From positions 131,954 to 195,953 of the forward strand of contig CAZPVP010000001.1 of NCBI GenBank assembly GCA_964590345.1: a stretch of DNA of 64,000 nt, written 5' to 3'. The stretch comes from an uncultured Gammaproteobacteria bacterium. GTDB taxonomy: Bacteria; Patescibacteriota; Patescibacteriia; CAIXNZ01. The notes below the pieces were generated by a model. That model saw only the letters and a list, made by a program, of their open reading frames with translations. It searched no databases and had not been told where the DNA came from. Both the position numbers and the translations under genes were made by a program. Shown piece by piece: positions 1 to 63,353 of the stretch. Numbering within the stretch: position 1 is the first letter of the stretch; each line of letters opens with the position of its first letter.

Positions 1-719
1 AAAGGGAAAGATGAGGCTATTGGTGACGTATTCATATTAAAAGAAATCATCAATTCATCATTTAACATCGGAATTGTTGATTTAAAACCCTGTTCAGCCT
101 GATATAAAACTTTTTTAGTATAAATTAATTTACCGCCGAAGATTGACTCAATTTCCGAAGTTAATTCATCCAATTCTTCCAAATTATCAGAATAAATTGT
201 CACATATAAAGCAAATTGGAAAAATTTTTCGGTGCCTTGAGTTAAATCATCTCTTAATTTTTCTATATCTTGTAAAGCTGTTTCTACAATTGGATCTCTT
301 GGCGCACCTTTTTCTACATCTGACATTAATTGGGCTTGTAAATTGCCTACCTTTTTTTTCAACTGTTTTAAAATAATTTCTGACTTAACAGGATAAAAAA
401 ACATTGCTACGTCCAAAGTTTTGCTCAAATTAATTATCGGGGTAAACCAACCAACGCTAATATAACGAGGATAATTTAAAACAAAAAGCGTTCTAACATA
501 ATTATCAGCTAACTTTAAAAAACTTGGTTTAATTTCAAAGGCAGCAGGAGCAATTAAATCCTTAATATCAATCACCCCTTTTCTATAAATCCTTTCTTCC
601 TCTAAAGTAATTGCTGCTTCTTTAGCTATTGTTTCTTCTTTAGCCATAGTTTCTTCTGGTGTTGATTTTTTTTCAGCAGCTGTTTCTTTTTTAAATTGTG
701 AAGAAATTGGTAAAGGCAT
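1..719 (-). CDS. virB4: VirB4/TrbE-family conjugal-transfer ATPase, 5' portion; the gene continues beyond the window start.
   Basis: A minus-strand ORF starts at an ATG at about 719-717 and runs off the window edge, which is why it is absent from the ORF track. My translation is MPLPISSQFKKETAAEKK...DLIAPAAFEIKPSFLKLADNYVRTLFVLNYPRYISVGWFTPIINLSKTLDVAMFFYPV... This matches the conserved Gram-positive-type VirB4/PrgJ/TcpF N-domain block (AP..IE..P..L..G..Y.RTL.V..YPR.V..GWL). The Walker motifs would lie outside the window. Confidence 0.6.
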   Translation of the reverse strand, partial: MPLPISSQFKKETAAEKKSTPEETMAKEETIAKEAAITLEEERIYRKGVIDIKDLIAPAAFEIKPSFLKLADNYVRTLFVLNYPRYISVGWFTPIINLSKTLDVAMFFYPVKSEIILKQLKKKVGNLQAQLMSDVEKGAPRDPIVETALQDIEKLRDDLTQGTEKFFQFALYVTIYSDNLEELDELTSEIESIFGGKLIYTKKVLYQAEQGFKSTIPMLNDELMISFNMNTSPIASSFP

Positions 720-740
720 TTTGAAATAAAATAATAATTA

Positions 741-1394
741 TTATCTTGCTATATCTAACTTGCTAATATCGCGTAATTTTTGATTTTGTGCGGTTTTGGG
801 ATTATAAGTATTATAATAAAGCTCTATTAAACCTTGGGTATCCAAAACTGCTGTATCTAAACCTAATGATTTTAAGCTTGATTGTACATTAGCAATTCTT
901 AAATTTAATTCCTCTTTATATTCCAAAAATTTTTCTCGTTTAAGTTTAATTAACTGTCCAGATTTTAAAGTTTCTTTAAATCTTCCCCAAAAATTTTTAG
1001 CCTTAAATCCTGTTGGATTATAAGGTATAACTATAAAAAAATTTTTATTCATTATTTCGCCAATTTCAATTAATTCCTGAATATAATCCAAATAACCAGC
1101 AATTTGAACCCTTAACAGCTCATTAGTCTGTTTTTTATATGCTTCTCTCAATCGCTTTAGATAATCTTCTACATCAAGCTTTCTTGATTGTATAACTATT
1201 TGCAACGGATGATCTAATGTATTTAAAAATTCCATATAACTACCAATCAAAGCATTTTGCTCATCTTCAGATTTTAAGGCAAAGTTAATACTAGAACATA
1301 AAATTACCGCCCTTAATGTCCCGTCTTTAAGAATCACTGTATCCTCCTTAATTTCTGCTATATCCAAATATTTTTGAGTTGAAACTTTGGCCAT
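741..1394 (-). CDS. VirB4-like extreme N-terminal segment (217 aa). It is separated from the downstream VirB4 ORF only by an in-frame TAA-TAA.
   Basis: ORF-track protein. The stretch YLDIAEIKEDTVILKDGTLRAVILCSSINFALKSEDEQNALIGSYMEFLNTLDHPLQIVIQSRKLDVEDYL follows the VirB4/TraC N-terminal pattern (D..I.KDG.L.AV..L.GI.F.L.SEDE...L...L.LQ...R). It is in the same reading frame as the 1..719 ORF and ends 7 codons before that ORF's ATG. Confidence 0.5.
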   Translation of the reverse strand: MAKVSTQKYLDIAEIKEDTVILKDGTLRAVILCSSINFALKSEDEQNALIGSYMEFLNTLDHPLQIVIQSRKLDVEDYLKRLREAYKKQTNELLRVQIAGYLDYIQELIEIGEIMNKNFFIVIPYNPTGFKAKNFWGRFKETLKSGQLIKLKREKFLEYKEELNLRIANVQSSLKSLGLDTAVLDTQGLIELYYNTYNPKTAQNQKLRDISKLDIAR

Positions 1395-1493
1395 TACTAT
1401 AAATTTAATTATTAGTCAAAAACCGCTAATTTCTATTCATATTAAAATCTGTATGCTTCTCTGAATAAAAATCATTGGTTAATTTTTGTATTA

Positions 1494-1913
1494 TTATTCT
1501 TCTTCTTTATAAGCACCGCCAGTATTAACCACCAATGCTAAAGAAGAAAGCCGAGAAGTAGGCAGCGGTTCTTTTTTTATGAATTCTTTTTCAACTTCAG
1601 CTTTCTCTTTAGGGGGGAGAGATTTTACTTTTTCTTTCTTCCAAATTCTTAAACTGGGTCGTCTTAATGTTTGAATAATATTCAAAAAAAAGAAATGAAA
1701 AGGCATACCATTGACTTTAAAAAAAGCAAAAACGCCAAAAATAACAGTCACTATAACAACAACAACAACAAAAGTATTAAAATAAAAAATTTTATAAAAA
1801 ATAAAATCAAGCATACCAGCCACCAGCATAATTAAAAATTGTCTAGTCGTTATTGAGCCGATAATCTTGCTCTCAACATCAATAAATTGTGGCACTAAAA
1901 ATTGATCCGGCAT
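1494..1913 (-). CDS. PrgI/VirB3-like small T4SS membrane protein (139 aa)
   Basis: The N-terminus PDQFLVPQFIDVESKIIGSITTRQFLIMLVAG is followed by two hydrophobic helices. Size, topology and the TxRQ motif resemble the PrgI/VirB3 family. It lies immediately upstream of the VirB4 segments, which is the canonical VirB3-VirB4 order. Confidence 0.5.
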   Translation of the reverse strand: MPDQFLVPQFIDVESKIIGSITTRQFLIMLVAGMLDFIFYKIFYFNTFVVVVVIVTVIFGVFAFFKVNGMPFHFFFLNIIQTLRRPSLRIWKKEKVKSLPPKEKAEVEKEFIKKEPLPTSRLSSLALVVNTGGAYKEEE

Positions 1914-4404: not shown

Positions 4405-7197
4405 CTATCCCTCGCCTTCTTGCTCTCCCTCCTCTTCCTTACCTGCCAATATATTGAAACTCCTAATTTCTGTAATTAAACGGTTTATTTCATTTTGCAT
4501 TGCTTCTCTGTTATCAGCCTTTCTGTATTCGTCTAAATTATCCCTTGCTTCATTTATTCTGCTTTCGTCAACCTTTACACCAGATTCTTTTAATTTATCC
4601 ATATAACCTTCTAATTGACGAAAAATGCTTTCTACTTGAAAACCTGCATCTTTTGTTGGTGTTTCAGCTTTAGAAATAACAGATAAGCTGGTATTTAAAT
4701 TATTTACTACATTATTAGAAACACTTCTAATATCTCCAGCTTGTTTTCGATCATAAGGAAACAAATTCCTTTCTCTTTCTTTAAAAGCGTCCATATCCTC
4801 TCGCTCTGCTGCTTCAGGGACAGTTGGCGGTGATGGAGGACCAACAGCTTGAATCTTATCCTTTATATTACTATTAAGCCGGCTGGGGTCCAAAGCTGTA
4901 AAGCCCTGCCCTTGACTGCCTTGTACTGGCCGGCCCGAAGCATCATATTCAGTAGTTAATTTGGCTCTTAAATTATTCAACTGAGCTAACTCTTGGTCAT
5001 CAATCAAATCCCGATCAGCAGTCGGATCAAATTCCTTATAATGTTCTAAGGCAGCTTTGCGATAATCTTCATGGCTTTCATCAGGTTTTCTGCGGCGGTA
5101 AACATCTTCTGCTAATTGAGCGCTGTCTTCAGTTAAAGTCGTCACTCTTTTTTCTTCACCGGTTATTGGATCGCGCTCTACTCTTTCTTCAGTTTCAAGC
5201 ATATCTTTTCTGGCATCACTTGAAGACACAATAAAATCTAATTTTTTAACCAGTCTATTGCGTGCCGGACCAGCTAAACTGCCAATAAATTGATTATTAG
5301 CTGCGCCGGTTAACTCTGCTACAGCATGTTTTTGCTGACGATTAATATCTTCTTGCCAAACTTGGCGGTCAGGATTCTTTTGCCAATTTTCCCGAGCTGC
5401 GCGCGCTTTTTCATCGCCAGCTGGATCACCAACACGAGGGGCATCAGGCACTTCACCAGGATTACCAAAGCCAACCCTGTTTGCTTGCTGGACAAAGCGG
5501 TCTTTTTGCGAATTTTTAACAAAATTCTTAACTTCAGAAAAATCATCGCGAGCCTGAAGTGTTTGCGTATCCGGATCCCAGCGCAAAGGAGAAACTGGCA
5601 CTCTGCTGCCTCCTGCCTGTTCATTTTTCCTTTCTAAATTTTCGCCAAAATCAATTTGTTCTGGCTCATTCATTTTTTTAAACATCCCGCCGCGACGCAT
5701 TTGGGCCACATGAGTAGGATTTAAGGCGCCTTGTTCAGCTAAACCATTGGCAAAAGCTTCCATTTTTGTTCTATCTTTCTGCTTTGCCGCTTTTTTCAAT
5801 CCTCGGCTCATAGCAACAGGGTCCTGATACTGGCCCGTCTTTTTTAATTCCTTTAACATGCCTTCTGATTGCTTCCTTTGAACTTGTCTTTTATCTAATG
5901 GTGTGCCGCTTAAAAAGGACCCAACCCTGGCCTTGCCACGCTCATAAGCTTCTCTTCTACCTCTTTTTGTTGCTAAACGCGCCGGACCGCCACGCCGATA
6001 AGCTCTTTGACCCATTCGCGCCATAGTCGGTCTAACGGCTTTAGTATAAGGAGCTTTAACCGCTGCTTTTGTGCCTGCCATTCCTCGCCTGGCTGCGCCT
6101 TCCAATTTTCGACCGCCCCAGGCCCTGCCTCGTTTAATTGCGCCGCTTGCCATACCTGAACCAACAACAGAAAACTGCCCGCTATATTGCAAACCAGCAA
6201 CTAATAAAATAGTGCTAATAATAAATGCTAAAATATTATTCCATTTACCAGCGGCAGAAAAAGTGCCTTGGGCTGTTTCTTGCGCCGCTTCTTGGCAATC
6301 AGCTACCTTTATAAAAGCGCAAGGATCTTTAGATAATTGAGCCATGGTCAAAAGTGACAGCCAAAGGAAAAAAGCCAAAAATGGTCCAATCATGCAATAT
6401 TTCATAAACATGCTCCACCAACGTTTTGATACAGATCCTATGCCTGTTTCTTCAAAAACATAAGCAAAAAAAGCCAATGGCGAAAAAACAATTAAAATCC
6501 ACAAAGCTATTATCCTGAAAACCAATTGGACTAAAAAGATTATCATAATTATCACCAATATAGTCGTATAAACTGCGCCCAATATACTGGCGCCAATTGC
6601 CTTGACCGCATCACCACCGCCTGAAACTTCAGCTTGTTCATTAGCTTTAAACCAATCTATCATGCCTGTGCCGCCAAAAATATTGCCTTCAGTAATGCCG
6701 ACAATGGAATTAACAAAAGTCAGCATTACTACCTGGAAAAAATCAATAATTATACCGCAAATAGTTCTGCTAAAATTAACTAAAATAGCCATAATCAAAA
6801 GCTTGCCTAAAAGCTTGTTCCATTGATATTTCTCTATTTTTAAAACAGTAACAAAAGCAATAAAAAGCAAACCCAGAATAAAAAACATATTAACTATATC
6901 GCGCATCATTTTCCAGCCATCTTTTACAAAAGGAGAATTAATAAAATCATTATATTGAGCAACAATGACAACCCCTTTCATAATTAAAACTAATAAATTA
7001 CCGCAAATCCAAATCCAAACCTTAACTAAAAAATTTATGCCCGCAACCATCCAGGTCAGAACATGACCAGTCCATTTAGAGGCTTCTTCTGCCGCCCAAA
7101 CTGTTTCAACATTAAAAAACAAACAGGCAATTACAACTAAAAAAACTGCTATCATTAAACTGGCTAAAATTTTTTTATTTTGAAATTTTTTCAGCAT
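4405..7197 (-). CDS. VirB6/TrbL-like polytopic membrane protein with a long hydrophilic C-terminal extension (930 aa)
   Basis: It has a signal/anchor sequence followed by about 7-8 hydrophobic helices in the first ~330 aa, for example WMVAGINFLVKVWIWICGNLLVL and ILVIIMIIFLVQLVFRIIALWILIVF. A ~600 aa charged tail follows. This topology is typical of VirB6/TcpH/PrgH-type channel subunits. It includes a striking Arg/Gly/Ala-rich basic segment: GRAWGGRKLEGAARRGMAGTKAAVKAPYTKAVRPTMARMGQRAYRRGGPARLATKRGRREAYERGKAR. Confidence 0.55.
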   Translation of the reverse strand: MLKKFQNKKILASLMIAVFLVVIACLFFNVETVWAAEEASKWTGHVLTWMVAGINFLVKVWIWICGNLLVLIMKGVVIVAQYNDFINSPFVKDGWKMMRDIVNMFFILGLLFIAFVTVLKIEKYQWNKLLGKLLIMAILVNFSRTICGIIIDFFQVVMLTFVNSIVGITEGNIFGGTGMIDWFKANEQAEVSGGGDAVKAIGASILGAVYTTILVIIMIIFLVQLVFRIIALWILIVFSPLAFFAYVFEETGIGSVSKRWWSMFMKYCMIGPFLAFFLWLSLLTMAQLSKDPCAFIKVADCQEAAQETAQGTFSAAGKWNNILAFIISTILLVAGLQYSGQFSVVGSGMASGAIKRGRAWGGRKLEGAARRGMAGTKAAVKAPYTKAVRPTMARMGQRAYRRGGPARLATKRGRREAYERGKARVGSFLSGTPLDKRQVQRKQSEGMLKELKKTGQYQDPVAMSRGLKKAAKQKDRTKMEAFANGLAEQGALNPTHVAQMRRGGMFKKMNEPEQIDFGENLERKNEQAGGSRVPVSPLRWDPDTQTLQARDDFSEVKNFVKNSQKDRFVQQANRVGFGNPGEVPDAPRVGDPAGDEKARAARENWQKNPDRQVWQEDINRQQKHAVAELTGAANNQFIGSLAGPARNRLVKKLDFIVSSSDARKDMLETEERVERDPITGEEKRVTTLTEDSAQLAEDVYRRRKPDESHEDYRKAALEHYKEFDPTADRDLIDDQELAQLNNLRAKLTTEYDASGRPVQGSQGQGFTALDPSRLNSNIKDKIQAVGPPSPPTVPEAAEREDMDAFKERERNLFPYDRKQAGDIRSVSNNVVNNLNTSLSVISKAETPTKDAGFQVESIFRQLEGYMDKLKESGVKVDESRINEARDNLDEYRKADNREAMQNEINRLITEIRSFNILAGKEEEGEQEGEG

Positions 7198-7212: not shown

Positions 7213-10200
7213 TTATGGACTAGACGCGCCACCTTCAGGTGATGAATTGCCTTCATGTTTGCAAACATCGCCATTCCAAGAACAACCAATTTTGTTTTCA
7301 CACTCTGTTTCATCTTTATAATAAGCGCAGGTATCAATCAAAAAAGGATAATAAGTCAAGCAAGCATAGGGTTGATAATCAGAAGTCGTTTCATAAAAAT
7401 CCTGGTAAATCCCGTCATAAAGCGGATTTGAAGTATCAAATTCTAAACACATACCTTCAAGGCCAAAGATTGCTTTTCTATTTTCTATATCTTTACAATT
7501 TGCGAGTTCTTCAGGATTGTCCGGATCATAATATGGATTACAGTCAGATGCCTTACTGCAAACTTGCCCCTTTGCTTCTTCAGGCATGGTACAAATTTTT
7601 GCCGGTGAATCACCTAAAGGAAAATAAGTTGTATAACCTCCTGCTTTAACTTGTTCATAAGAACAAGCAGTACCAATATCTTTTAAGTCTACAGATTGAC
7701 TATATAAATTCGGTATATCTTTATATTCTTGCTCTTCTGATAATTGATAAGGCAAGGGTGCGTTCTGTTCAGGGAATATTTTACAAATTGCTTCTGTATA
7801 ACGTTCATCTGCTGTCCTGCCCAATTTATTCAAATGAAAATATTGTTCAAATTCTTTATCATTTAACTCTGTCTCTAAAGGGAAACGATTAGGGATAGTA
7901 TAACCAGAGTAATCACCTGCGCGCCATTGCGTTAACTGCGTTAACGGGCCTATGCCGAAACGATAAATATAACCTTCTTTGTTATTATAATCGCTTATTC
8001 TTTTTATTGTCATTGGCTCTTCTTGCAAACTATATCGTACATTATCTTTTGGTGCTCTAACTAACTCGCCTCCCTGCCATTCAGTTAATAATCTAACGCA
8101 TTCACTGGCTTCGCGTTCAGCGCACAAATTAACTTGCTGACAAAAACCATTTTCGTCTTTTTCTGTGCAAACGGCCCATTGCTCACAATTACGGTCCTTT
8201 GAAACTTTTATTGTCTCAAAATTATTATTTGCTGTATTTAAAAATTCTACACAGCCATTATTCCAATCAACTTCTGTACAGCTTGACCTGTCAACATTAA
8301 CTCCTAAATCTATAACATAATAACTGTCTTCTGTATTGTCTTTGACTTCAACCTGGTCATAAATTATATAAGAATCGGGGCAGTTGTTTTTTTCAGCGCT
8401 TTTATTCCCATTAAGCGGGGCATATAAGATTAAATTGAAATCAAGCAAATCATCAAATTCGTTCCATGTAAGATCCTCTTCTTCGCAGCTTTTTTGAGAT
8501 TTATAATCAGAATTTTCACACTCACCAAGCGGCACCGAATATAAAATTTCTACTTTTTTCCAGTCAGTTTCAGCTGTATAAATAATTGGTTCGGCTCCCC
8601 TTTCTGAATCAACCGGCCTAAATTCAAAAGCTGCTTCTGGCATTGGGCAATCATTGCCCACGCCTTTTGAATCTTCATTCATTTTATAATAAAAAGAAAT
8701 TTTATAAGCTTTACCTTTTTCTAAACGGACAAGTTTTTGGCTAATACCATAAGGGGGGGCTTCACATTCTTCATATAAAGGCGTACTTGGGCAATCTTGA
8801 GCAGTTTCTTTTATTAATTTAATAGCTGTTTCACCGGCCTGGACATCATCTATTTCTTTATCCTGGCTGCCAGAACTAGCCGCTACAGTCACCCAATTTG
8901 ACAAACCACCAGTCGGATCACGGGTTTCAAAACCACCGTTAAAGACAAAATTAGGATTAATATCTAAAAATTCAGTGCAACCATTCCATTCTTCACTGCA
9001 TTTTCCGACATAACCTTTATATTTATTTGCCTCATAAACTTTATAAATACTAAACGGATAAGCTAAACATTGAGAATTAAGCCATTCGCCTCTTTTTAAC
9101 AAACAGGTTTCTTCATCTTTTATTTCAGGCAAAATTAAAGTGCATTGATCATATTTTTCACTCCACTCTCCGCCATTATCTTGACAATCCTCTATATTAT
9201 CAAAAAGCAAGCCGCCACAGCCAAGTTTAGGATTGCCTTTTTTAAACCAGCCTTCAACCTTTTGACCATTAATTAAATTTTGCTTATACTCGCAAAGTTT
9301 GGTTGGCTCAATTTTATAATACTCTGAAACACCCTCTTCATTAATTAATTCCGTACAACCTAAAGCGTCATGATTGCATAAAATGGCGTCTGGCACATTA
9401 ACATATTTGTCCGGATTATTCTTTAAATAAACTTCTTGAAAAGTTATATTCTCTACATCTTCAAAGTTTGGCTTGCCTAAACGCTGACAACCTTTATCAT
9501 TATCAGAACAGCTATAATTATCATTCAAAACTAAAGTGGTTAATTCATCTTCAGCTACTGAATAATCATCCAAAGGCGAGGCATTCTCATTATTAAAAGT
9601 CTGGCCATGTGGATTGACTGAATTTTTAGTATCAACTAAAATTTGACAACCGACTGCGCTTTCTCTACATAGATTAGTAAACGATCTAAGATAATGAGTC
9701 TGTCCTAAAATATCCTCATAAGCTTGACAACCTATCATTTCTCCCTTTTTAAATACGCCGTAAAATGTTCTATCACAGCTGTCTGGCGTTGACCAACTAT
9801 CTTTAATAGCATAAACATTATCTTTAACCACTTTTAATAAAATATTATCCAAATAAACTTTATTATCAAGGGAATCAAAGATTAAACTGTTATTTTGCAA
9901 ATCATCCCAGCTAACATAAACCGGCCCTAAAGTATAATTTTGCCAGTCCGTAGTCAATCTTACCGTTTGGTTCTCCAAGGTAGCGAAATTTTCCATGGTT
10001 GTAGCATTACCGTCATCTACTGCTGTGCTAAATCTAACTGCGATTACTTCACCTGCTGGATTGTCAGTCTTTGCCCAAAATGACAAAGTGTATAAATTAC
10101 CCCGTTGAATATCAATAAATTTATGAATACTGTTTACTTCTTGCTGAGGAATCAATAAAGAATGGCCGCCTACTGCTATTGATTCGCCAACTCTAGTTAA

Positions 10201-13200
10201 AGAATCATTTTCCTCTCCCTCCAAACCATTATACCAATCTAATTCAGCTGTGTCTTCAAAATTATCAAACATTTTTATATAAACATTATTGCCTTGATTG
10301 CCGACAAAAGCACGGCAGCCATTTGCTTCAGGACGGCAGGCAATGCCTTCATCTGGGATAGCGTCATAAAGGCAAGCTTCAATATCGCTCTGCCAGCGGC
10401 CATTAGTAGCTTCACAATTTTCTTCAGTTGCGTCAGTTTTTCTGTAAGGGTGGCAGTCTTCTGAAACCGAAACTGTTTTTCTAATATTGCGCCAATAATT
10501 GTTGCCATCATTGTCAAAAAAATTAATACACTTAAAATCTTGGCTGCCTAAAGTTACTCTACAATCGGCTGAACCATCAATTGTTTTTGGCGCACCAGTA
10601 TTCTCATCTTGCTGTAATTCATATTTAATCAATTGCGGCGGACCTGTTTCAGAGCCCTGCCAGGTGAAATAGGTCTTTTCTCCTAAGCCTAAATTAGGTT
10701 TAATGCATTGCCTTAAATAAGTATAATATCCAATGCCCTCGCCTCCTCTAGCCACTTCATCTAAATTAGTAAACTGCGAACAGCCAACTTCATCAAGCGT
10801 ACAAGCTGAAGCCGTATCTGGAATAAAATAATGATATAAAGGATCAGGTTCTGGATCATATAGCGCTGACTCTTGTTTATAAGTATCATAACCGACACAT
10901 TCAGCCGGACAATAATCATACGTGCTTACTACGCCAGGAATCGGAGGATCATTATTCAAAGGCGTAAAAAGCTGACAACCGACTTCTTCGGGTTGGCAAA
11001 CTTTCATATAATTTATACAGGCTGAATCATCAGGTGCATATTTATAACAAGCTGTTTTGTCAGCAAAGAATGCTGGTTTATCATCTTCTGGCTGATCCCA
11101 AAAATACCCATTGTCTTCACAAGCCTTTTTAGTTGTAAAATTTGCCATTACCGGCGGCGGATCACCCGGTCCATAGCCATGACAATTTAAAATTTCCGGC
11201 GGTTTCTTATAATAAATCTTATTATTTGATTCATAATCAGTATATCCGCTAATAAAATCTCTGTTTCTCACCTGATCAATTGTGTTTAGAGATAAATCAA
11301 GAGCATCTAAATAAACCTCTGCATCTGTTTCACCGCCTGGCAAATTAATTAAAATTTCAAGAGCTGTGCCTGGACGCGAAGTCATTAATGTGCTATTAAC
11401 TCGAGAATAGGCATTATTTAAGGAAAAACTGCCACTATTAAGCTCGTCAGGGAAAGTTTTTATCTTTTTTACTAAATTAAAAATAATTGGTTGATCCAGG
11501 GGCTGATTAGACTTTAAATAAGCTGTGGCTGTATAAGTGTCGCCTGCTCTTGTTAAATTCCCATCCTCATTAAATTTAAGGCTGTGAACGAGCTGCAATT
11601 CTTGATCAGCTGGAATTTGGCTAATATCCACTTGCAATTTACCTAAGCCACGATGTACATTGAAGCCATCTTTAGAAACAGAAGCTATGTCACTAAATGG
11701 CCCGTACCCCAGCCAATCGCCTAAAAGTTCTTGGCAATTCTCTTTGCTATAATCATAAATAAAAGCATCTTGACAACTCTTTAGCCAACTACCTCCATTT
11801 TGCACGCAAGTCTCTTCGCCTGCTTCAGTTAATTCGCTTGAAATCTGACCGTCAATCTGACATTCAGTCTGCCAAGTTCCATTATTATCTTCACAATCTG
11901 CTTGATTATCAAATTGCGGATTTCTGCAAAGGTTATATTTTAAAATACTTGTTAAACAATATTTTTTATATTCCGCATCTATGCCAAGTTTATCATTAGA
12001 ACAATCATCTTCTTTTACGTCATCATTTACCGCGCCTTCACAACGATAATCCCAAGTTCCCTCGCGAGCTAAACATTCTTCTTCTGTTACTGCATCTTCA
12101 ACACCGTCACAAAAACCCTGCCAAGTGCCATTATTAAAATTACACAATTCTCTTGTTTCATAACCATAATTTAAACAACTTTCATAATAAGTACCGTCAC
12201 ATTCATCTCTTTCTTCTACTTCTTTTTTAAGTCGCAAATCCCAATTAGCCGGGAAATAACCTTCTTTAGTGTATTCAAAGCTTGAATCAGCCACTAAATT
12301 ATTAGCCGAATCACGATATAAGAAAAATTCATTACAGCCTTCGTTTTCTTTTTGGCAGCTTTCAACATTATTGTTTAAATAAATCCTTTGATCATCCTGC
12401 CAAAGACCAGCTTTTGAACGATTAGTAGCATACCAACTGCAGCCTGCATTATGAGGCCCGCAGATTTCGCTGCCGCTTAGAGTATTTTTTAAATATGAAA
12501 TTAAACTAGTGCCTTCAGGCTCACTAATCGTATAAGTACGGCAGCTATTATATGCTTCAGGGCAAGAATCAGCGCCAAATTGCCAAGCATTTTTTTCTTT
12601 GACACAAAATCCATAATCTTCATTAACACAGCCTCCCTTGCCATCTTCCTCCAAGCAGGAAGAAAAATCAGGGCAGCGAGAGTACCTTTGGCCAGTTAAA
12701 TTAGACATTAAAATTTCACCGTAAGGCTCTAAATCAGTTTGCAAAGCGCATTTTGTTGTTGGAATTTTTAAAAGCCAATCAGGATCGACCAAATTACAAA
12801 AAGCTGACTCATCATCATCAAAATCACCGCAAGTTCCAGAACCAATTTTATCAAAACCATTAACGACATCAGCCAGAGTTGCTCCGACAACTTCATTTTT
12901 CTTTCTTATGTTATAATTTCTAATTTCTTCCAAACTGGCCCCAACGCCTGATGGCTTAAATAAACAATTTCTTAATCGTTCCGCAACAAAAGGTTTGGCA
13001 AGATCATTGTAGCCCGGTTGCTGTGCAGTTATATCTTCAAACTTGGCAAAATCAGGCTGGCCATCATTATCTTCATCATAAATATTTCTAAAATTACAGT
13101 CTCTAACTAATTCAATAGCCAATTCCAAACCCAAAGGCACAACACGAGCTTTTCTTAATTTTTTAATATTAGCCAAATGATAAGTGCCTGTTTCTACAGT

Positions 13201-15156
13201 CTCACCCCATGAAAAACCATAATCACCAACTAATTTCCTTTTTTCTAAAGCCTCACTTATTGTTAATTTATCATTAATTGCTAAAGCAAAATTTGAATCA
13301 ATAACATTATTATAAATATTTGGATTAACTTCCCCCTTAAGCTCTAATTGAAAATCAGACAATAAATTCACACTTTTATATGTAGCACTATAACTAAATT
13401 GCTGAGCCAACTTTTCAACATAACTTTGTATGCCTTCACTTGTCACTACTTCCTGGCTAAAAACATTAAAAGGCTGAACAGGATCCAAGGGTTCGCTTTC
13501 TGCTTCATCTGCGGCTTGTTTTTTTAACTTTGCGACTGAATACTCTTCTTGTTGCGATTCATTTAAGGCTGTTAATAACCTTTTTATCATGTGATTCCAA
13601 AGTGTGCCTGTAAAAACACCCAAAGCATCAGCTGCGATTTCTTTAGTATAAATTCTGGCATTATAAACCCCCTTGCTTGCTTTTAAATCTTCTTCTACTG
13701 AATCCCTAATAAGATTAGCAGGGGTTTGAATAGTATCAGTAATGCGATCCATGGCCCCTTTCCAGCCATCATTAATGGTTGCTTCAACGTGACGGTCAAT
13801 AAATTTATCAAGACCAACATCAACTATTTCTTTAGCTATATTTTCCCAAGCATTAAATTCATTGGCTTCAGGATTAAACATTCCCTTGCCTAATTGCCAA
13901 TTATATCTTTCACCGGCTTCAAAATTTTCAGGCGTTAATAATCTATCAAGACTGCTTTTTAAATAATCAAAGCTGCTTTTTATAGAATCAATAACACCTT
14001 CAATCAAGCCAATCTTGCGATTAACTTCATTTTCATAAATTTCAGCCAAATTTCTAGCGTCTTCTGGTATTGTGCCCAGGACCGGGCCTATGCCTAAACC
14101 CTGTAAAACCCTTGCGCAGTCGCCTTCACGCAATTCTATTGCGCTTTTGCCTTTACAGCCTGAATAAACAGATTTGGCTTCCTGTAAATTTTCCAGCCAA
14201 GGATCAATCCTGTTAAACCATTCTTCTTTAATTAAAGGGATATTTTCCGGTGCAATAACAAATTCACCAACTGATAATTCAACCGGTTCACTGCTTGCCA
14301 TTCCGCCTCTAATCGCTCTGCTATCATCTGATAATGTTTCTGTTAAATCATCCAGTTTTTCAGCATATACCTGCAAATTTTCTTGAACTGGCGGCATACT
14401 GCATTTGACTCGGCCTCCAGAAATAGACTCGCAATTTCCTGGTAACCAGTCCATCAACCGGTTATCCCATATCATAAGCTGCTCGTCATAAAGCGTAAAA
14501 TTTCGTAATCTTTCATTGCTCTCACTGACTGTCCCGCCTTCCTGAATTTGATAATTAAAAGAAAACCAATCTGACTCTGCCCATTCTTCCCAATGGCTAG
14601 TCAACTCTGAAAACGAACAATCAGGCGAATAGCCTTTAAAGCCTGGAAACATAGGCATATCCAAAGTTAAATCAATTGCTATTCTTGGATCAAGAGTGCA
14701 AATATCAATACCGGTTAAATCCTGCATCACGGTCTGAATCATATCACCAATTGCCGCATCAGCATAACCCTGAATAAATTGGTCAAAATTTGTAATAAAT
14801 TTAGGCGCACCGCCTTTATCTGAATGAGCCACCCATACAGCTGTCTGCTGGGCAATCGTATTTGCTAATCCGCCTAAAATATTTTTAAAAAACATTGCTT
14901 TTATTTCACTCAAAATTTTTGTGATTATCCTGTCAACTTTTTTTTCTGTTTCCTCTGCTGCTTGCTGACTCATATGAGCGCCTTTCATCACATTCTCGGC
15001 TGTCGAAAGAGGAACTAAATCTGGATTAGTTACAGGCGTTGCTTTTACCTCTTCAAGCTTAAAAAAGAAAACAGCATAAAAATTGCTAAAAACAAAAATC
15101 AGCGCAACAACTAAAATTATCAGCTTTTTAATTTTTATTTTTCTTGACTTAAGCAT
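7213..15156 (-). CDS. Giant secreted or membrane-anchored cysteine-rich protein (2647 aa), a putative surface/adhesin component of the T4SS-like locus.
   Basis: A single uninterrupted ORF with an N-terminal hydrophobic anchor (LIILVVALIFVFSNFYAVFFF). Paired cysteines recur along its length and there are many Asn-x-Ser/Thr sites. It is co-directional and immediately downstream of the VirB6-like gene (15-nt gap). Confidence 0.7.
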   Translation of the reverse strand: MLKSRKIKIKKLIILVVALIFVFSNFYAVFFFKLEEVKATPVTNPDLVPLSTAENVMKGAHMSQQAAEETEKKVDRIITKILSEIKAMFFKNILGGLANTIAQQTAVWVAHSDKGGAPKFITNFDQFIQGYADAAIGDMIQTVMQDLTGIDICTLDPRIAIDLTLDMPMFPGFKGYSPDCSFSELTSHWEEWAESDWFSFNYQIQEGGTVSESNERLRNFTLYDEQLMIWDNRLMDWLPGNCESISGGRVKCSMPPVQENLQVYAEKLDDLTETLSDDSRAIRGGMASSEPVELSVGEFVIAPENIPLIKEEWFNRIDPWLENLQEAKSVYSGCKGKSAIELREGDCARVLQGLGIGPVLGTIPEDARNLAEIYENEVNRKIGLIEGVIDSIKSSFDYLKSSLDRLLTPENFEAGERYNWQLGKGMFNPEANEFNAWENIAKEIVDVGLDKFIDRHVEATINDGWKGAMDRITDTIQTPANLIRDSVEEDLKASKGVYNARIYTKEIAADALGVFTGTLWNHMIKRLLTALNESQQEEYSVAKLKKQAADEAESEPLDPVQPFNVFSQEVVTSEGIQSYVEKLAQQFSYSATYKSVNLLSDFQLELKGEVNPNIYNNVIDSNFALAINDKLTISEALEKRKLVGDYGFSWGETVETGTYHLANIKKLRKARVVPLGLELAIELVRDCNFRNIYDEDNDGQPDFAKFEDITAQQPGYNDLAKPFVAERLRNCLFKPSGVGASLEEIRNYNIRKKNEVVGATLADVVNGFDKIGSGTCGDFDDDESAFCNLVDPDWLLKIPTTKCALQTDLEPYGEILMSNLTGQRYSRCPDFSSCLEEDGKGGCVNEDYGFCVKEKNAWQFGADSCPEAYNSCRTYTISEPEGTSLISYLKNTLSGSEICGPHNAGCSWYATNRSKAGLWQDDQRIYLNNNVESCQKENEGCNEFFLYRDSANNLVADSSFEYTKEGYFPANWDLRLKKEVEERDECDGTYYESCLNYGYETRELCNFNNGTWQGFCDGVEDAVTEEECLAREGTWDYRCEGAVNDDVKEDDCSNDKLGIDAEYKKYCLTSILKYNLCRNPQFDNQADCEDNNGTWQTECQIDGQISSELTEAGEETCVQNGGSWLKSCQDAFIYDYSKENCQELLGDWLGYGPFSDIASVSKDGFNVHRGLGKLQVDISQIPADQELQLVHSLKFNEDGNLTRAGDTYTATAYLKSNQPLDQPIIFNLVKKIKTFPDELNSGSFSLNNAYSRVNSTLMTSRPGTALEILINLPGGETDAEVYLDALDLSLNTIDQVRNRDFISGYTDYESNNKIYYKKPPEILNCHGYGPGDPPPVMANFTTKKACEDNGYFWDQPEDDKPAFFADKTACYKYAPDDSACINYMKVCQPEEVGCQLFTPLNNDPPIPGVVSTYDYCPAECVGYDTYKQESALYDPEPDPLYHYFIPDTASACTLDEVGCSQFTNLDEVARGGEGIGYYTYLRQCIKPNLGLGEKTYFTWQGSETGPPQLIKYELQQDENTGAPKTIDGSADCRVTLGSQDFKCINFFDNDGNNYWRNIRKTVSVSEDCHPYRKTDATEENCEATNGRWQSDIEACLYDAIPDEGIACRPEANGCRAFVGNQGNNVYIKMFDNFEDTAELDWYNGLEGEENDSLTRVGESIAVGGHSLLIPQQEVNSIHKFIDIQRGNLYTLSFWAKTDNPAGEVIAVRFSTAVDDGNATTMENFATLENQTVRLTTDWQNYTLGPVYVSWDDLQNNSLIFDSLDNKVYLDNILLKVVKDNVYAIKDSWSTPDSCDRTFYGVFKKGEMIGCQAYEDILGQTHYLRSFTNLCRESAVGCQILVDTKNSVNPHGQTFNNENASPLDDYSVAEDELTTLVLNDNYSCSDNDKGCQRLGKPNFEDVENITFQEVYLKNNPDKYVNVPDAILCNHDALGCTELINEEGVSEYYKIEPTKLCEYKQNLINGQKVEGWFKKGNPKLGCGGLLFDNIEDCQDNGGEWSEKYDQCTLILPEIKDEETCLLKRGEWLNSQCLAYPFSIYKVYEANKYKGYVGKCSEEWNGCTEFLDINPNFVFNGGFETRDPTGGLSNWVTVAASSGSQDKEIDDVQAGETAIKLIKETAQDCPSTPLYEECEAPPYGISQKLVRLEKGKAYKISFYYKMNEDSKGVGNDCPMPEAAFEFRPVDSERGAEPIIYTAETDWKKVEILYSVPLGECENSDYKSQKSCEEEDLTWNEFDDLLDFNLILYAPLNGNKSAEKNNCPDSYIIYDQVEVKDNTEDSYYVIDLGVNVDRSSCTEVDWNNGCVEFLNTANNNFETIKVSKDRNCEQWAVCTEKDENGFCQQVNLCAEREASECVRLLTEWQGGELVRAPKDNVRYSLQEEPMTIKRISDYNNKEGYIYRFGIGPLTQLTQWRAGDYSGYTIPNRFPLETELNDKEFEQYFHLNKLGRTADERYTEAICKIFPEQNAPLPYQLSEEQEYKDIPNLYSQSVDLKDIGTACSYEQVKAGGYTTYFPLGDSPAKICTMPEEAKGQVCSKASDCNPYYDPDNPEELANCKDIENRKAIFGLEGMCLEFDTSNPLYDGIYQDFYETTSDYQPYACLTYYPFLIDTCAYYKDETECENKIGCSWNGDVCKHEGNSSPEGGASSP

Positions 15157-15215: not shown

Positions 15216-16022
15216 TCAATATGAATTAAGAATTTCTAAAAACGTGTTTTTTAAAGTCTGATCATCAATCTGATCCAATAAGTTTTTATCAATACCGCTT
15301 TTTTCCAGCTCCTCTCTTATTTGAGCCGGGGTTAAATTTTTTAGTTCTTCTATTGTTAATTCCTTTGCTTCAGGACTTAATTGCTCAGTTGTTTCTGTCC
15401 CTATTGACTCACCGCTGCTAAACTCTTCTAACATTTGCTGAAAATCCTGATCATAAATACCCATTGCCTCTAAATTCATATCCTCAGAAGAATATGTATC
15501 AATTAAATCAGTTATTTCATTTGCCGGTCCATTCATGTTTTGATTTAAAGATGTTCCTGCTGCTTCTTCTTCAAACTGCTGAGCAGTACAATCTTCCCCC
15601 TCCGGGCAATTGGGATCAGTGCCAGCCAAAATTTCCTGTTTATCCCAAATGCCATCACTGTCGCTATCCTCCAAATAAGGACTGGTTTGATAAATATAAA
15701 TCTCACTATAATCATCTAAACCGTCTAAATCACTATCCTGATTTTGCAATTTAATAACTTCTTCTTCTGGCCTTGCTTGATTTGTAGCGCTAACCTTATA
15801 TTTGTTCCGCAAGTCACTTCTTATATTATGCAAATAGCTGGGATACAAAGGCTCTTCTAAATTTTTTTTAAACTGGAGATAACCAAGGACTAAAGCAGAA
15901 ATTGTAATTAAAATTAAAAAAAATACAAAGAATTTCTCCATAGGAGTCTTTTCTATTTTGCTGCTTATTTCTTCGCTTTTTTCTTCAAAAAATTCTTTTA
16001 TTTTTTCTCGTCTGTCTGTCAT
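15216..16022 (-). CDS. Membrane-anchored acidic protein with TSP3-like calcium-binding Asp motifs (268 aa)
   Basis: One TM helix (FFVFFLILITISALVLGYLQF). After it come DSDLDGLDDYSE and DSDSDGIWDKQEILAGTDPNCPEGEDC, which fit the thrombospondin type-3 repeat pattern DxDxDG..D...DNCP. The C-terminus is acidic. Confidence 0.6.
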   Translation of the reverse strand: MTDRREKIKEFFEEKSEEISSKIEKTPMEKFFVFFLILITISALVLGYLQFKKNLEEPLYPSYLHNIRSDLRNKYKVSATNQARPEEEVIKLQNQDSDLDGLDDYSEIYIYQTSPYLEDSDSDGIWDKQEILAGTDPNCPEGEDCTAQQFEEEAAGTSLNQNMNGPANEITDLIDTYSSEDMNLEAMGIYDQDFQQMLEEFSSGESIGTETTEQLSPEAKELTIEELKNLTPAQIREELEKSGIDKNLLDQIDDQTLKNTFLEILNSY

Positions 16023-20548: not shown

Positions 20549-21643
20549 CTACTTCATTTTTAAATACGCTTCAATAAACCCGTCCAAATATCCATCCAAA
20601 ACCCCCTCCACAGCAGCTGTTTCAAAATTTGTCCGATGATCTTTAACTAAGTGATATGGCTGCAAGACATAAGATCTAATCTGATTACCCCAGACGGCTT
20701 CGGAAAATTCACCGCGTAATTGTTTTTTTTCTTCTTCTTTCTCTATTTCTGCTAATTTCTGCAATTTTGATTTTAAAATTTTTAATGCCTGTTCTTTATT
20801 TTGCGCTTGAGAACGTTCACTTTGGCAAGACGCAATAATTCCTGTTGGCAAATGCGTGATACGAACAGCTGATTCTGTTTTATTAACGCTTTGTCCGCCA
20901 TGCCCAGATGCCCGAAAAGTATCAATTTTCAAATCTTCCGGTTTAACGTCAATTTCCAATGATTCTTCAATTTCAGGGATTACTTCAACTAAAGCAAAAG
21001 ATGTATGGCGCATGGCTTCAGCGTCAAAAGGCGAAATTCTCACTAAACGATGTACTCCATTTTCTGATTTTAAATTACCATAAGCATAATTTCCTCTCAC
21101 TTCAATAACTGCACTTTTTATACCGGCTTCAGAACCAAAGTTTTCATCTAAAATTTTAGTTTTAAATCCTTTTTTATCACAAAACCTCAAATACATGCGC
21201 AAAAGCATCTGTGCCCAATCTTGCGCATCAACGCCGCCTGTACCAGCATGAATAGCTAAAATCGCATTATTCTTATCATTTTTATCCCCAAATAACAAAT
21301 AAAATTCCAAATCTGAAAATCTTTTTGCTAATTCTTCATATCTTTTCTCAACTTCTTTTCTCAAATTAACTGCTTGATCTTTTTGATCCATTTTAGCTAA
21401 TTCTAAAAGATCATTAACTTCATCTCTTAAACTGCGCCAGGTTTCAATTTCATCTTTTAATTCATTGGCCTTTTGGCTAATTTTTTTAGCTTCTTGCTGA
21501 TCCTGCCAAAAATCCTTTTGGCTCATTAATTTTTCTAATTTTTTGCTTTCTTCTATTTTTTGGTCAATTTCAAGAAAGCCCCAAGATTCCTTAATTTTCC
21601 TAAATAATTCCTGCATTTTTTGCACTAATTCTTTCTCTTTCAT
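20549..21643 (-). CDS. prfB: Peptide chain release factor 2
   Basis: SPF tripeptide (RISPFDAEAMRH) and GGQ motif (GHGGQSVNKTESAVRITHLPTG). It is a full-length 364-aa single ORF, so there is no programmed +1 frameshift in this genome. Confidence 0.9.
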   Translation of the reverse strand: MKEKELVQKMQELFRKIKESWGFLEIDQKIEESKKLEKLMSQKDFWQDQQEAKKISQKANELKDEIETWRSLRDEVNDLLELAKMDQKDQAVNLRKEVEKRYEELAKRFSDLEFYLLFGDKNDKNNAILAIHAGTGGVDAQDWAQMLLRMYLRFCDKKGFKTKILDENFGSEAGIKSAVIEVRGNYAYGNLKSENGVHRLVRISPFDAEAMRHTSFALVEVIPEIEESLEIDVKPEDLKIDTFRASGHGGQSVNKTESAVRITHLPTGIIASCQSERSQAQNKEQALKILKSKLQKLAEIEKEEEKKQLRGEFSEAVWGNQIRSYVLQPYHLVKDHRTNFETAAVEGVLDGYLDGFIEAYLKMK

Positions 21644-33227: not shown

Positions 33228-33959
33228 TTATTCAGTCGGTGGCACCAAAAGCCGGCCCGGACCATTTGGGTCATAACCATTGCGAACTTCTTCTCCGTCA
33301 TTAAAACCATCGCCATCAGTGTCCGGATCAAGCGGATTAGTCCCGTAAATTTCTACTTCTTCCTGATCAAAAAGCCCGTCATTATCAGTATCAGCATTTA
33401 ATGGATTGGTGCCCAAAGCTTCTTCTTCCTCATCAGTCAAACCGTCATTATCACTGTCTACAGCTGGCGCGGCATTAACATTGGCATTGGCATTAGCATT
33501 GGCATTGGCGTTGGCGTTAGCATTGGCATTGGCGTTAATATTGGCATTGGTGTTAACATTGGCATTGGCATTAGCATTGGCATTGGCATTAACATTGGCA
33601 TTGGGTGTTGGCTCTGGCTGCTGAACAAAACTCAAATATGCCAAGACTCCGCCGACAATTAATAAGATAACAATTACCACAATTAAAATAATTAAAATGA
33701 CCCTTTTACTCTTGCCTATTTTTGGCATTTGGGGCGGTTTGGTCGTGCCTTCACCAGCAGCCTTGCCAGCAGCTGGACTGCCAGTATCAATACCGGCAAA
33801 AATATCTTCGGGTTCGCCAGCTGGTTTGGCTGATTCTGGCCGAGGGCTTTGATCTTGCCCGCCAGCTGGTGCTGCTGAAGGGCTTGACCCTGATGGTTGA
33901 GGACCAGATGGTGTCTGCTCTCTTTCTCCCCCTGATCTTTGTTCTGGTTTGTCAAACAT
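33228..33959 (-). CDS. Membrane-anchored protein with an Asn-Ala dipeptide repeat and tandem TSP3-like Ca-binding repeats (243 aa)
   Basis: TM helix ([23 protein letters not shown]). [42 protein letters not shown] repeat. [58 protein letters not shown] fits the thrombospondin type-3 pattern. Confidence 0.7.
33478..33606. repeat. Near-perfect tandem hexanucleotide repeat (GCATTG/GCGTTG)n of about 21 units inside the coding sequence
   Basis: Direct reading: gcattggcattggcattagcattggcattggcgttggcgttagcattggc..., encoding (NA)n. This is a likely length-variable simple sequence repeat. Confidence 0.8.
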
Positions 33960-34550: not shown

Positions 34551-36275
34551 TTAAGATGAAGGCGGAGTATAAGAAATAATTACTGGTTTGGTTAAATCAA
34601 GAATTTCTTGTCCTTCATAAACGCCATCTGGACCTGGTTCTTTTAAAAACCAACTATCTATACCATCAATAAATTTTGGTTCTATTATCATAGACCAGCT
34701 GGTATCTAAATTAGCTATCTCAAACATCCCTCCATCAGTACAACACTTGAACCATTCCCAATCAGCTGGCCAGTCTTTTTCATCATCAGCACTAAATTCA
34801 GAGCCATCGTCATCAGCTACTGCTACTACTGCCATATCCCAACCTGTCCTTGAAAAATCAAACTTAACACGACCACCACCCTCATCTGTTTTATCGTCTA
34901 AAATAATCGTACAATCATTATTTTCACCAATATTTGGCACATCATGAATAAAGCCCAAGCTCATCATATCATCACTACCATCAATATACGCAAAAATATT
35001 GCTGCGATCAGGATAAACCATATCATATTCTACTACATTACTTGAATTCGGACAGCTTGTTGTTGAATCATCACACTCACCCCCATAACAATAAAATCCA
35101 CTAGCACTTTTTTCAGTAACATATGGTCTAATTTTGGCTGAAAAATCAGTCTCTAGCTGAGTAACTTCTAGTTCTACACACGATCCTTTATAATCATAAC
35201 AGTCATCGCAAAGATCACCAATACCGTCCCCATCAACATCATCCTGGTTAGGATTAGAAATTCCTGGACAATTATCCAAAGAATCAGCAACTCCGTCTTC
35301 ATCAGTATCATCAGGAAATGGAAGCCGATAACCATTAAATTTACTGCCCTGCCAAGTCATCTCATCATTTGCGTTAATAACACAAGTATTGCCTTCAACA
35401 TGATTACCATCACTGCAATCAACCACTCTTTCAGTTATACTTACCGACTCATCCTGCGCGCAAAAGCCAATGTCGTCACAATAATCGCCAATACTAATAT
35501 CTTGGTCATTTTTACAGTCAGAATCATAATTATCACATTTCCTGTTATAAACTGTTTTTAATATTCCGCCAGTAACTGCTTGGCCATTGTCAATAGAACT
35601 TGTTATTACCTCAATAAACTTCTTTTCAATAACCTCTGGAGTGCGATCAACAACACACCAGGCATTTAATCTCATTCCTTTGCCAAAAACCGGGGTATCC
35701 ACTTCGCTGTTTAATAAATTTACTGACCGCTTATAATCCCGCATCTCATTGCCCGGAGGCACTACTTTTGGATCTCGCCAGCTGTCTGGCTCATTAAAAT
35801 CATTAATTGCCCAATAAATGCCTTGAGAAAAAAATGGCTGTCCATCAACAATTGATTCATCTAAGCTCGCTTTACAACTGCTATCATCACACTGATATTC
35901 TACTAATGTTAATAATTCTTCCACTGTGGGCAGACGAAACATGCCAGCTGGTTCTAAATCAGCACAAGCATCATAAGCTTCCTGCCAAGTATAGCCGGGC
36001 TCTAATTCTGCTGTTTCTAAATTTTCTGCGCTATCATAATAAGTAGGCAATTCATGACGCGCCCAGACCAAGCCAGTACATTCATCCTTCATGGTTAGGG
36101 CATTAACATTAACATCAACAAAACCAGGACAGTCTTTATCTTTAATCTCTTTAAGATATTCTTTTAACACCCAGTCTGTTTCAACCACTTCAGCCCAAAT
36201 GTTGCAGCCAACAAAGCCAAAACTAATAATAATTATTATTAAAATATAAATTTTAAACCAATGAAAATTTTTCAT
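34551..36275 (-). CDS. Secreted cysteine-rich protein with a DUF1566 (Lcl C-terminal-like) domain and thrombospondin type-3 repeats (574 aa)
   Basis: Signal peptide. ECTGLVWARHELPTYYDS...YTWQEAYDACADLEPAGMFRLPTVEELLTL matches DUF1566 (D..TGL.W....W..A...C..L...G..WRLPT..EL..L). DTDEDGVADSLDNCPGISNPNQDDVDGDGIGDLCDDC is a textbook TSP3 repeat. Confidence 0.7.
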   Translation of the reverse strand: MKNFHWFKIYILIIIIISFGFVGCNIWAEVVETDWVLKEYLKEIKDKDCPGFVDVNVNALTMKDECTGLVWARHELPTYYDSAENLETAELEPGYTWQEAYDACADLEPAGMFRLPTVEELLTLVEYQCDDSSCKASLDESIVDGQPFFSQGIYWAINDFNEPDSWRDPKVVPPGNEMRDYKRSVNLLNSEVDTPVFGKGMRLNAWCVVDRTPEVIEKKFIEVITSSIDNGQAVTGGILKTVYNRKCDNYDSDCKNDQDISIGDYCDDIGFCAQDESVSITERVVDCSDGNHVEGNTCVINANDEMTWQGSKFNGYRLPFPDDTDEDGVADSLDNCPGISNPNQDDVDGDGIGDLCDDCYDYKGSCVELEVTQLETDFSAKIRPYVTEKSASGFYCYGGECDDSTTSCPNSSNVVEYDMVYPDRSNIFAYIDGSDDMMSLGFIHDVPNIGENNDCTIILDDKTDEGGGRVKFDFSRTGWDMAVVAVADDDGSEFSADDEKDWPADWEWFKCCTDGGMFEIANLDTSWSMIIEPKFIDGIDSWFLKEPGPDGVYEGQEILDLTKPVIISYTPPSS

Positions 36276-41217: not shown

Positions 41218-41255
41218 AAAAATATTTTATTATAAAAAATAAGTAGCAAATTTTA

Positions 41256-52571: not shown

Positions 52572-52577
52572 GCTATT

Positions 52578-53726
52578 TTATTGATTTGGTTTAAAATTAA
52601 TAGTTACAGTCGCTGGAAATTCCTTGGCCAAAAGAATGCCCTCTTTCAAATCTGCTGAGAAAAAATACCATTCTGCATCTAAAAGTGGGCTTTTGAAACC
52701 CCACTCATGAGGCTCAAATTTATTTACTGTTAAATCAAAAATCAATTCTTCAGATCCATCACCAATATAAATAACTTCGCCGTCAGTACAGCAAGGCGCC
52801 CAGCCATTATTATAAACTAATTTATTATTGCACTCGCCATACCTGTCGCCTCTAATATTAGTCTTATCACATGGATAATTTGGCAAAGATGCCAATATGC
52901 CATCGTCTAATATTGCAAATTTAAAATAATCCCTGGTCTTTGTTAATGAACCATTAAATCCGCCTGATCCCTTGTTAATCTCGCTATGAATATTAATTAA
53001 ATAATATTTTGGCTGATTAGGATTGCTTTGATCTTTATAAATAAAGCTTATTGTGCGATTAGCCGCTATCATCCTGTTAAAAAAACCGCCATATTCTTCA
53101 AGAGAAATAATATTAGTGCTTGCAGTGAACTCAGTGCCATAACTGTAAAAATCTTTAATTGATTTATTTAAACTAAAAATACCCAAATCAACGCTCTGCC
53201 CATTATAATCCATTGAAAAACCAGTATCAGTCAATAAACCAATAGAATCATCATCATCTTCTTCCTCGCCATTTTCTTGCTCGCCATCACCATAATATTG
53301 CTGATTAATATTTTCATTTACGATTCGGCCGTTCTCTGCCATTTCCACACCTGTTGCTTCCATTATTTTTTTCAAAATATAATTAGTTATACCAAAAGCA
53401 ACCAAAATGACAACTAAACCAGTACCAGCAGAAATTAATATTTTCTTAGCTTTTTCTAATTTTTCTGAATCATTCCTGCCAATTAGATATAAAAATCCGC
53501 CATAAATAAACAAAGCCACTGCCACTATTCCTAATAAACCTAAAGAAACTTTAATTATATTTGCCATCGTCAGCCTAAAATCTCCAGCGCCTAAACCTGT
53601 TTCTGTGCCATATTCTAAGCCAACTTCTATCATGCCTGCATTTGCCTGACTAACTAATAAAAATAAGCTTAAAAGAACAATTATTCCTAACAAATATATA
53701 ACTTTTTTTGCAAAAATTTTATTCAT
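52578..53726 (-). CDS. T4SS pilin-like N-terminal module fused to a ~260-aa extracellular domain (382 aa)
   Basis: The N-terminus GMIEVGLEYGTETGLGAGDFRLTMANIIKVSLGLLGIVAVALFIYGGFLYLIGRNDSEKLEKAKKILISAGTGLVVILVAFGITNYIL is colinear with the N-termini of the two neighbouring genes. The C-terminal domain is unrelated. Confidence 0.65.
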   Translation of the reverse strand: MNKIFAKKVIYLLGIIVLLSLFLLVSQANAGMIEVGLEYGTETGLGAGDFRLTMANIIKVSLGLLGIVAVALFIYGGFLYLIGRNDSEKLEKAKKILISAGTGLVVILVAFGITNYILKKIMEATGVEMAENGRIVNENINQQYYGDGEQENGEEEDDDDSIGLLTDTGFSMDYNGQSVDLGIFSLNKSIKDFYSYGTEFTASTNIISLEEYGGFFNRMIAANRTISFIYKDQSNPNQPKYYLINIHSEINKGSGGFNGSLTKTRDYFKFAILDDGILASLPNYPCDKTNIRGDRYGECNNKLVYNNGWAPCCTDGEVIYIGDGSEELIFDLTVNKFEPHEWGFKSPLLDAEWYFFSADLKEGILLAKEFPATVTINFKPNQ

Positions 53727-53734
53727 AAAATTGT

Positions 53735-63257: not shown

Positions 63258-63353
<96 letters not shown>

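Follow-up and report, generated by a model that had tools for sequence, protein, structure and literature searches.

A TrsD-like gene and a VirB4 core gene as the probable two-piece VirB4 of a chromosomal T4SS in Patescibacteria

TrsD and VirB4 in described systems

Fused VirB4 proteins of monoderm bacteria, such as PrgJ, the CD1110 family and the Mycoplasma Mbov_0397 family, are single polypeptides of 750-900 aa with PrgI encoded immediately upstream. PrgJ of pCF10 is a single 796-aa chain directly after PrgI. The diderm MPF_T system of R388 also has its TrwK/VirB4 as one chain (PDB 7O3J-7O43, 8RTB/8RTD), and the R388 inner-membrane-complex structures hold TrwM/VirB3 together with TrwK/VirB4. 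The Staphylococcus plasmid pSK41 is arranged differently from these single-chain forms: an unnamed 135-aa gene at the TrsC position is followed by TrsD (227 aa) and then by a 672-aa VirB4-like DUF87 ATPase, which is TrsE.

A recent study reported a remote homology between TrsD and the N-terminus of VirB4 (Quinonero-Coronel et al. 2025, PMC12102498). Of all T4SS components, TrsD is also the one found most often in Patescibacteria: 2,272 homologues were counted, 1,664 of them associated with virB4 (PMC12102498). The study describes chromosomal TrsD homologues beside virB4, together with PrgI/VirB3, VirB6 and VirB2-like pilins; elsewhere TrsD occurs only in the pGO1 subclass of MPF_FATA, and no function has been attributed to it (PMC12102498). 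The TrsD homologue of Ca. Southlakia epibionticum is listed as essential (PMC12102498), and the essential T4SS locus of this species, SEML1_0006-0019, was described by Wang et al. 2023 (PMC10633639). The pairing of trsD and virB4 in Patescibacteria is already known from this work (Quinonero-Coronel et al. 2025, PMC12102498). The published pairs are the same system as the one described here, to which our locus adds only the coincidence of a shared reading frame and a tandem TAA.

The locus and its two genes

We analysed a stretch of 64,000 nucleotides, referred to below as the window. The minus strand is the coding strand of all genes at its low-coordinate end, where a PrgI gene (1913..1494), ORF A (1394..741) and ORF B (719..<1) follow one another in the same order as on pSK41. 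The features of this region are:

1494..1913, minus strand: PrgI-family (VirB3-like) small membrane protein, 139 aa; Pfam PF12666 PrgI, E 4.5e-10, 40.4 bits against a cutoff of 27 bits; directly upstream of ORF A
741..1394, minus strand: ORF A, TrsD-like or 'TraC-like' (PF26593), 217 aa; ATG at 1394, stop codon TAA at 743..741
720..740, minus strand: intergenic spacer, 21 nt, A/T-rich, TAA TTA TTA TTT TAT TTC AAA, read directly
609..719, minus strand: ORF B start codon (719..717) and K/E/A/T-rich N-terminal linker, residues ~1-37, from the translation
1..608, minus strand: conserved part of ORF B (rest of the VirB4 N-terminal domain), from NF045971 and NF045975 profile matches

An earlier note on this DNA described a VirB4-like gene that is interrupted by tandem in-frame stops and restarts a few codons later. 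Direct reading confirmed the arrangement itself. ORF A is ended by TAA TAA, the second in-frame TAA (740..738) being the first triplet of the spacer, and an ATG (719..717) opens ORF B 21 nt on in the same frame. ORF B leaves the window at base 1, with 239 codons visible. Its translation opens with MPLPISSQFKKETAAEKKSTPEETMAKEETIAKEAA..., and the low-complexity linker that had been placed right behind the restart ATG is indeed found immediately 3' of it, as the K/E/A/T-rich stretch SQFKKETAAEKKSTPEETMAKEETIAKEAA. The start context of ORF B is A/T-rich, has no Shine-Dalgarno motif and resembles that of other genes in the window. We found no terminator-like site between ORF A and ORF B, and a promoter and terminator scan at the junction did not rise above background. 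Across the window, which has a GC content of 35.3%, 23 of 32 long ORFs end in TAA, more than in any other stop, and almost every long ORF is preceded by 20 A/T-rich nucleotides in which no Shine-Dalgarno motif is recognisable.

Profile searches aligned the two ORFs with consecutive stretches of VirB4. Residues 5-148 of ORF A match positions 103-257 of the 894-position model NF045975 (VirB4_plasma; E 5.5e-9), and residues 28-239 of ORF B match positions 284-479 of the same model (E 2.5e-20). On the CD1110 VirB4 model NF045971, ORF A matches the N-terminal part (positions 2-95 of 752) and ORF B matches positions 165-382 (E 1.2e-22); ORF B additionally matches TIGR00929 (E 7.8e-5). The ORF B scores remain under the full-length cutoffs because only 239 aa lie inside the window. 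The regions matched by the two ORFs are consecutive and do not overlap, in agreement with the earlier claim that both ORFs carry successive VirB4 N-terminal blocks. The fused monoderm VirB4 proteins cover the same profile positions, in the same order, as ORF A and ORF B do jointly.

Comparison with TrsD gave a distant match. ORF A scored 35.5 bits (E 8.6e-9) against the NCBIfam TrsD/TraD model NF041427, and because this is far below the curated cutoff of 200 bits, its sequence marks it as a remote relative, not an equivalog, of staphylococcal TrsD. Residues 40-221 of pSK41 TrsD align with residues 12-198 of ORF A by BLASTP (25% identity, E 5e-9), and hhalign returned a probability of 91.2% (E 1e-6) over 178 columns; the similarity to TrsD thus extends along the whole of ORF A, some 200 residues. 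Residue 33 of pSK41 TrsE aligns with residue 51 of ORF B, so that the break falls at the same homologous point in the two systems; ORF B has an extra K/E-rich N-terminal linker relative to TrsE of pGO1/pSK41. A tblastn search of plasmids with ORF A matched 337 records, mostly Bacillota conjugative plasmids, and several of the matches are annotated trsD. The match on a Pontibacillus plasmid immediately precedes a gene for a CD1110-family VirB4.

Homologues of ORF A are numerous and close to it in form. The protein collection yielded 6788, and the best 120 of these (57-100% identity) are all stand-alone proteins of 192-237 aa that come, where named, from Patescibacteria (Buchananbacteria, Uhrbacteria, Falkowbacteria, Parcubacteria). 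PF26593 ('TraC-like') is the precomputed hit for these 120 and for P0001, a protein 100% identical to ORF A; it was absent from our local Pfam scan results for ORF A. The predicted fold of ORF A gave R388 TrwK/VirB4 as its top matches by structure comparison, at a sequence identity of ~10%, and a profile search of ORF A against PDB sequences produced chance hits only. Homology of ORF B to PrgJ begins at PrgJ residue 225. Aligned directly, ORF A and the N-terminal part of fused PrgJ showed no significant similarity (hhalign probability 0.2%; BLASTP E 0.027), and the link between ORF A and fused VirB4 therefore rests on the NCBIfam profiles and on a natural fusion, P0270. ORF A is the free-standing counterpart of the N-terminal stretch in fused VirB4 proteins.

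We recovered P0270 by searching 1.84 billion 50%-identity representatives with ORF A, which yielded 2387 clusters at E <= 1e-3. Among the best 150 clusters, 149 have representatives of 117-445 aa and one, P0270, is a fused TrsD-VirB4 of 898 aa (locus L087, 4001-6697). ORF A aligns to its residues 11-223 (38% identity, E 2e-44) and residues 44-239 of ORF B align to its residues 322-517 (46% identity, E 1e-66), with Walker A and Walker B further on. Between the two parts lies a disordered, low-complexity, P/A/G/Q-rich linker of ~98 residues. The identical protein is found on five contigs and is shown for three sequencing runs, each time with a PrgI gene directly before it; P0270 is thus a real gene and not an error.

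The fusion also helps to locate the gene boundary. Several stand-alone TrsD-like representatives (P0126, P0129, P0142 and P0155) carry P/Q/A/T-rich C-terminal tails of 150-220 aa, whereas in the window it is ORF B that begins with the low-complexity stretch. The start M-(P/A)-(L/I)-P-I is common to ORF B and its two closest relatives and the linker behind it diverges fast; tblastn alignments of ORF B to 79 orthologues begin anywhere from query residue 1 to 46. From the linker of P0270, the tails of the TrsD-like proteins and the diverging N-terminus of ORF B, we infer that the gene boundary lies inside a flexible inter-domain linker.

Full-length orthologues of ORF B measure 571-658 aa (median 635), from which ORF A and ORF B together would amount to ~850 aa, as long as an entire VirB4. 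All 68 full-length orthologues have Walker A (ATSGAGKS) and 65 of the 68 have Walker B (ILVIDEAW); the ATPase domain of the window's own ORF B lies beyond base 1.

Conservation of the split and competing readings

A scan of one genome per species confirmed 472 relatives of ORF A, and 80 loci were kept. In 79 of these 80 species-level Patescibacteria loci, orthologues of ORF A and ORF B stand in this order on one strand, and a PrgI-like gene lies directly upstream of the ORF A orthologue, also on the same strand, in all 77 related loci with enough upstream sequence. The junction itself is variable. The gap separating the stop codon of A from the start codon of B ranges from -4 (an overlap) to 240 nt across the 79 orthologous loci, the stop codon of A is TAA in 55, TAG in 16 and TGA in 8, and B shares the frame of A (0) in 31 cases and is shifted by +1 in 27 and by +2 in 21, with no departure from uniform use (chi-square ~1.9). 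The closest relative found, L081 (80% identity), has a 29-nt spacer and a different frame; the next, L082 (75% identity), has a 27-nt spacer and the same frame. Selection on both ORFs is strongly purifying, with dN/dS against L081 of 0.128/1.35 (~0.095) for ORF A and 0.110/1.21 (~0.09) for ORF B at synonymous sites that are near saturation. In four loci (L025, L037, L056 and L075, just downstream of position 6640 in each) the spacer between trsD and virB4 spans 80-240 nt, and these long spacers contain short tandem-like repeats, for example ctcgtaactcgtaac..., aataacgaaataacgaaataac and aaaatcaaaatgcaaaaatcaaaatgcaaaatg.

The features that had drawn attention to this junction are unremarkable in this setting. 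Two ORFs would share a frame by chance in one case out of three, and since the orthologous junctions are spread over all three frames as counted above, its occurrence here calls for no explanation. TAATAA terminates 3 of the 32 long ORFs in the window (35% GC), against an expectation of 6.4% for a stop per triplet, and a special role for the tandem was rejected on finding this same ending elsewhere in the window. The shared frame and the tandem stop are coincidences, no more than chance.

The earlier note had left three explanations standing: a genuinely two-piece VirB4, a recent nonsense pseudogenisation and a readthrough or recoding site. Its picture of a gene interrupted and restarted in this particular genome is wrong, as the orthologous virB4 genes of 79 out of 80 species proved to be divided at this very place. 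Pseudogenisation would mean that a continuous VirB4 gained two adjacent stops in this lineage and that the system is defective. Two ORFs in one frame and 21 nt apart look like such an event, and the fused form does exist in nature, but the relatives are divided at this position in all three frames, and 149 of the best 150 50%-identity representatives are split as well. Moreover, ORF B has its own conserved start, and the low dN/dS (~0.09) is found on both parts, with synonymous sites near saturation, and we reject pseudogenisation as extremely improbable. We likewise reject the idea that the stops were created by an assembly or sequencing error, given that the same gene boundary recurs in hundreds of independent assemblies and that an NCBI assembly already includes a 217-aa protein 100% identical to ORF A.

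Programmed readthrough or recoding at TAATAA would yield a full-length fused VirB4 besides or instead of the two proteins. The shared frame in the window and in 31 of 79 relatives would permit it, and fused proteins are functional in other lineages. However, neither the frame relation nor the spacer is conserved: frame use is uniform within chance, spacers that run from an overlap to 240 nt leave no conserved recoding signal, and all three stop codons are used. Two UAA codons in a row are a strong termination signal, we know of no bacterial code with a reassigned UAA, and the window carries a gene for a class-I release factor (20549-21643, PCRF and RF-1 domains). We therefore reject readthrough as very improbable. 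A different possibility accepts two proteins but separates their functions, with ORF A as an independent accessory T4SS subunit that descends from the VirB4 N-terminus but has ceased to be part of VirB4, may act at the membrane or in the handling of substrate or pilus, and does not dock to ORF B. Such a role would suit the Gracilibacteria, whose TrsD homologues are not encoded beside virB4 (PMC12102498), and the many TrsD-like proteins with long disordered C-terminal tails of their own. Yet what is missing from ORF B and TrsE is precisely what ORF A and TrsD provide, the fused form contains one copy of each part in the same order, and adjacency is strict (79 of 80 loci). We judge an accessory role improbable on these grounds.

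Support from the conserved split, selection on both genes, pSK41 TrsD/TrsE and P0270 converges on the two-piece alternative. ORF A and ORF B very probably constitute an intact gene pair of a chromosomal T4SS in a Patescibacteria (CPR) bacterium, together encoding a two-piece VirB4.

Genomic setting and proposed assembly

The window is chromosomal and includes ksgA, a ROK kinase, an alpha-amylase, a class-I release factor, htrA, nrdD with an adjoining radical-SAM gene, ftsZ, ftsA, hisS and der. This setting amid housekeeping genes differs from that of pGO1/pSK41 (pGO1 subclass of MPF_FATA), in which the genes are plasmid-borne; in contrast to these plasmids, we saw no relaxase or coupling protein within the window. 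The T4SS encoded here resembles the conjugation machinery of single-membrane (monoderm) bacteria. Other features along the window are:

4405-7197, minus strand: 930-aa hydrophobic ORF with no Pfam hit
7213-15156, minus strand: 2647-aa cysteine-rich giant ORF
15216-16022, 33228-33959 and 34551-36275, minus strand: TSP3 (bacterial thrombospondin type-3) repeat proteins, one also with an Lcl C-terminal domain
36403-41217, minus strand: giant ORF, 1604 aa
41256-52571, minus strand: giant ORF, 3771 aa
52578-53726 and 53735-55825, minus strand: VirB2-like T4SS_pilin domain proteins (PF18895)
63258-63353, minus strand: tRNA by Rfam (51.7 bits), missed by ARAGORN; reads as tRNA-Pro (anticodon UGG), 96 nt

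The 2647-aa ORF and then the 930-aa ORF both lie upstream of the PrgI, TrsD-like and VirB4 genes, and their equivalents in L082 occur in the same order with >2781 aa and 1032 aa; the 930-aa protein could be a VirB6-like candidate. The giant ORFs of 3771 and 1604 aa are directly downstream of the two T4SS_pilin genes, and the whole interval 36403-55825 (minus strand) looks like a second T4SS-related block. The three TSP3-repeat proteins may be surface or adhesion proteins. The tRNA-Pro has ~22 extra T-loop bases, palindromic tcccaaggggatccctttggga, with 27 bases present where the model expects 5.

The TrsD-like ORF A (217 aa) and the VirB4 core ORF B correspond to what is one polypeptide in fused VirB4 such as PrgJ, here encoded by separate genes. 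ORF A stands for the N-terminal ~200 residues, and ORF B for the remaining N-terminal domain and, going by its relatives of ~635 aa, the ATPase domain with Walker A and B. The gene break falls where the fused forms have a flexible, low-complexity linker, with both TAA codons serving as ordinary termination and the in-frame ATG as the ordinary start of the next gene. Co-transcription of ORF A and ORF B is likely because the spacer is only 21 nt and contains no terminator. The two polypeptides would then associate non-covalently and rebuild the complete VirB4 N-terminal domain, probably with the TrsD-like module as the part that attaches the ATPase hexamer to PrgI/VirB3 in the membrane.

The position of the break in a disordered inter-domain linker and the existence of a natural fusion support the view of TrsD as nothing more than an N-terminal VirB4 module that has become detached, which would be a refinement of published knowledge rather than a discovery. 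A bolder and rather unlikely idea is that the near-universal split (79 of 80 species and 149 of 150 representatives, the fused form being rare) is itself functional. The TrsD-like protein would in that case be a separately dosed or assembled adaptor that binds PrgI/VirB3 first and then recruits the VirB4 core via the flexible linker. Were this adaptor reading true, Patescibacteria and pGO1-type plasmids would possess an assembly checkpoint that is absent from fused VirB4 systems. Annotators should not flag the junction as a pseudogene, a frameshift or a recoding site and should regard the T4SS locus as intact. An epibiotic lifestyle is impossible without the T4SS in the one Patescibacteria species amenable to genetics.
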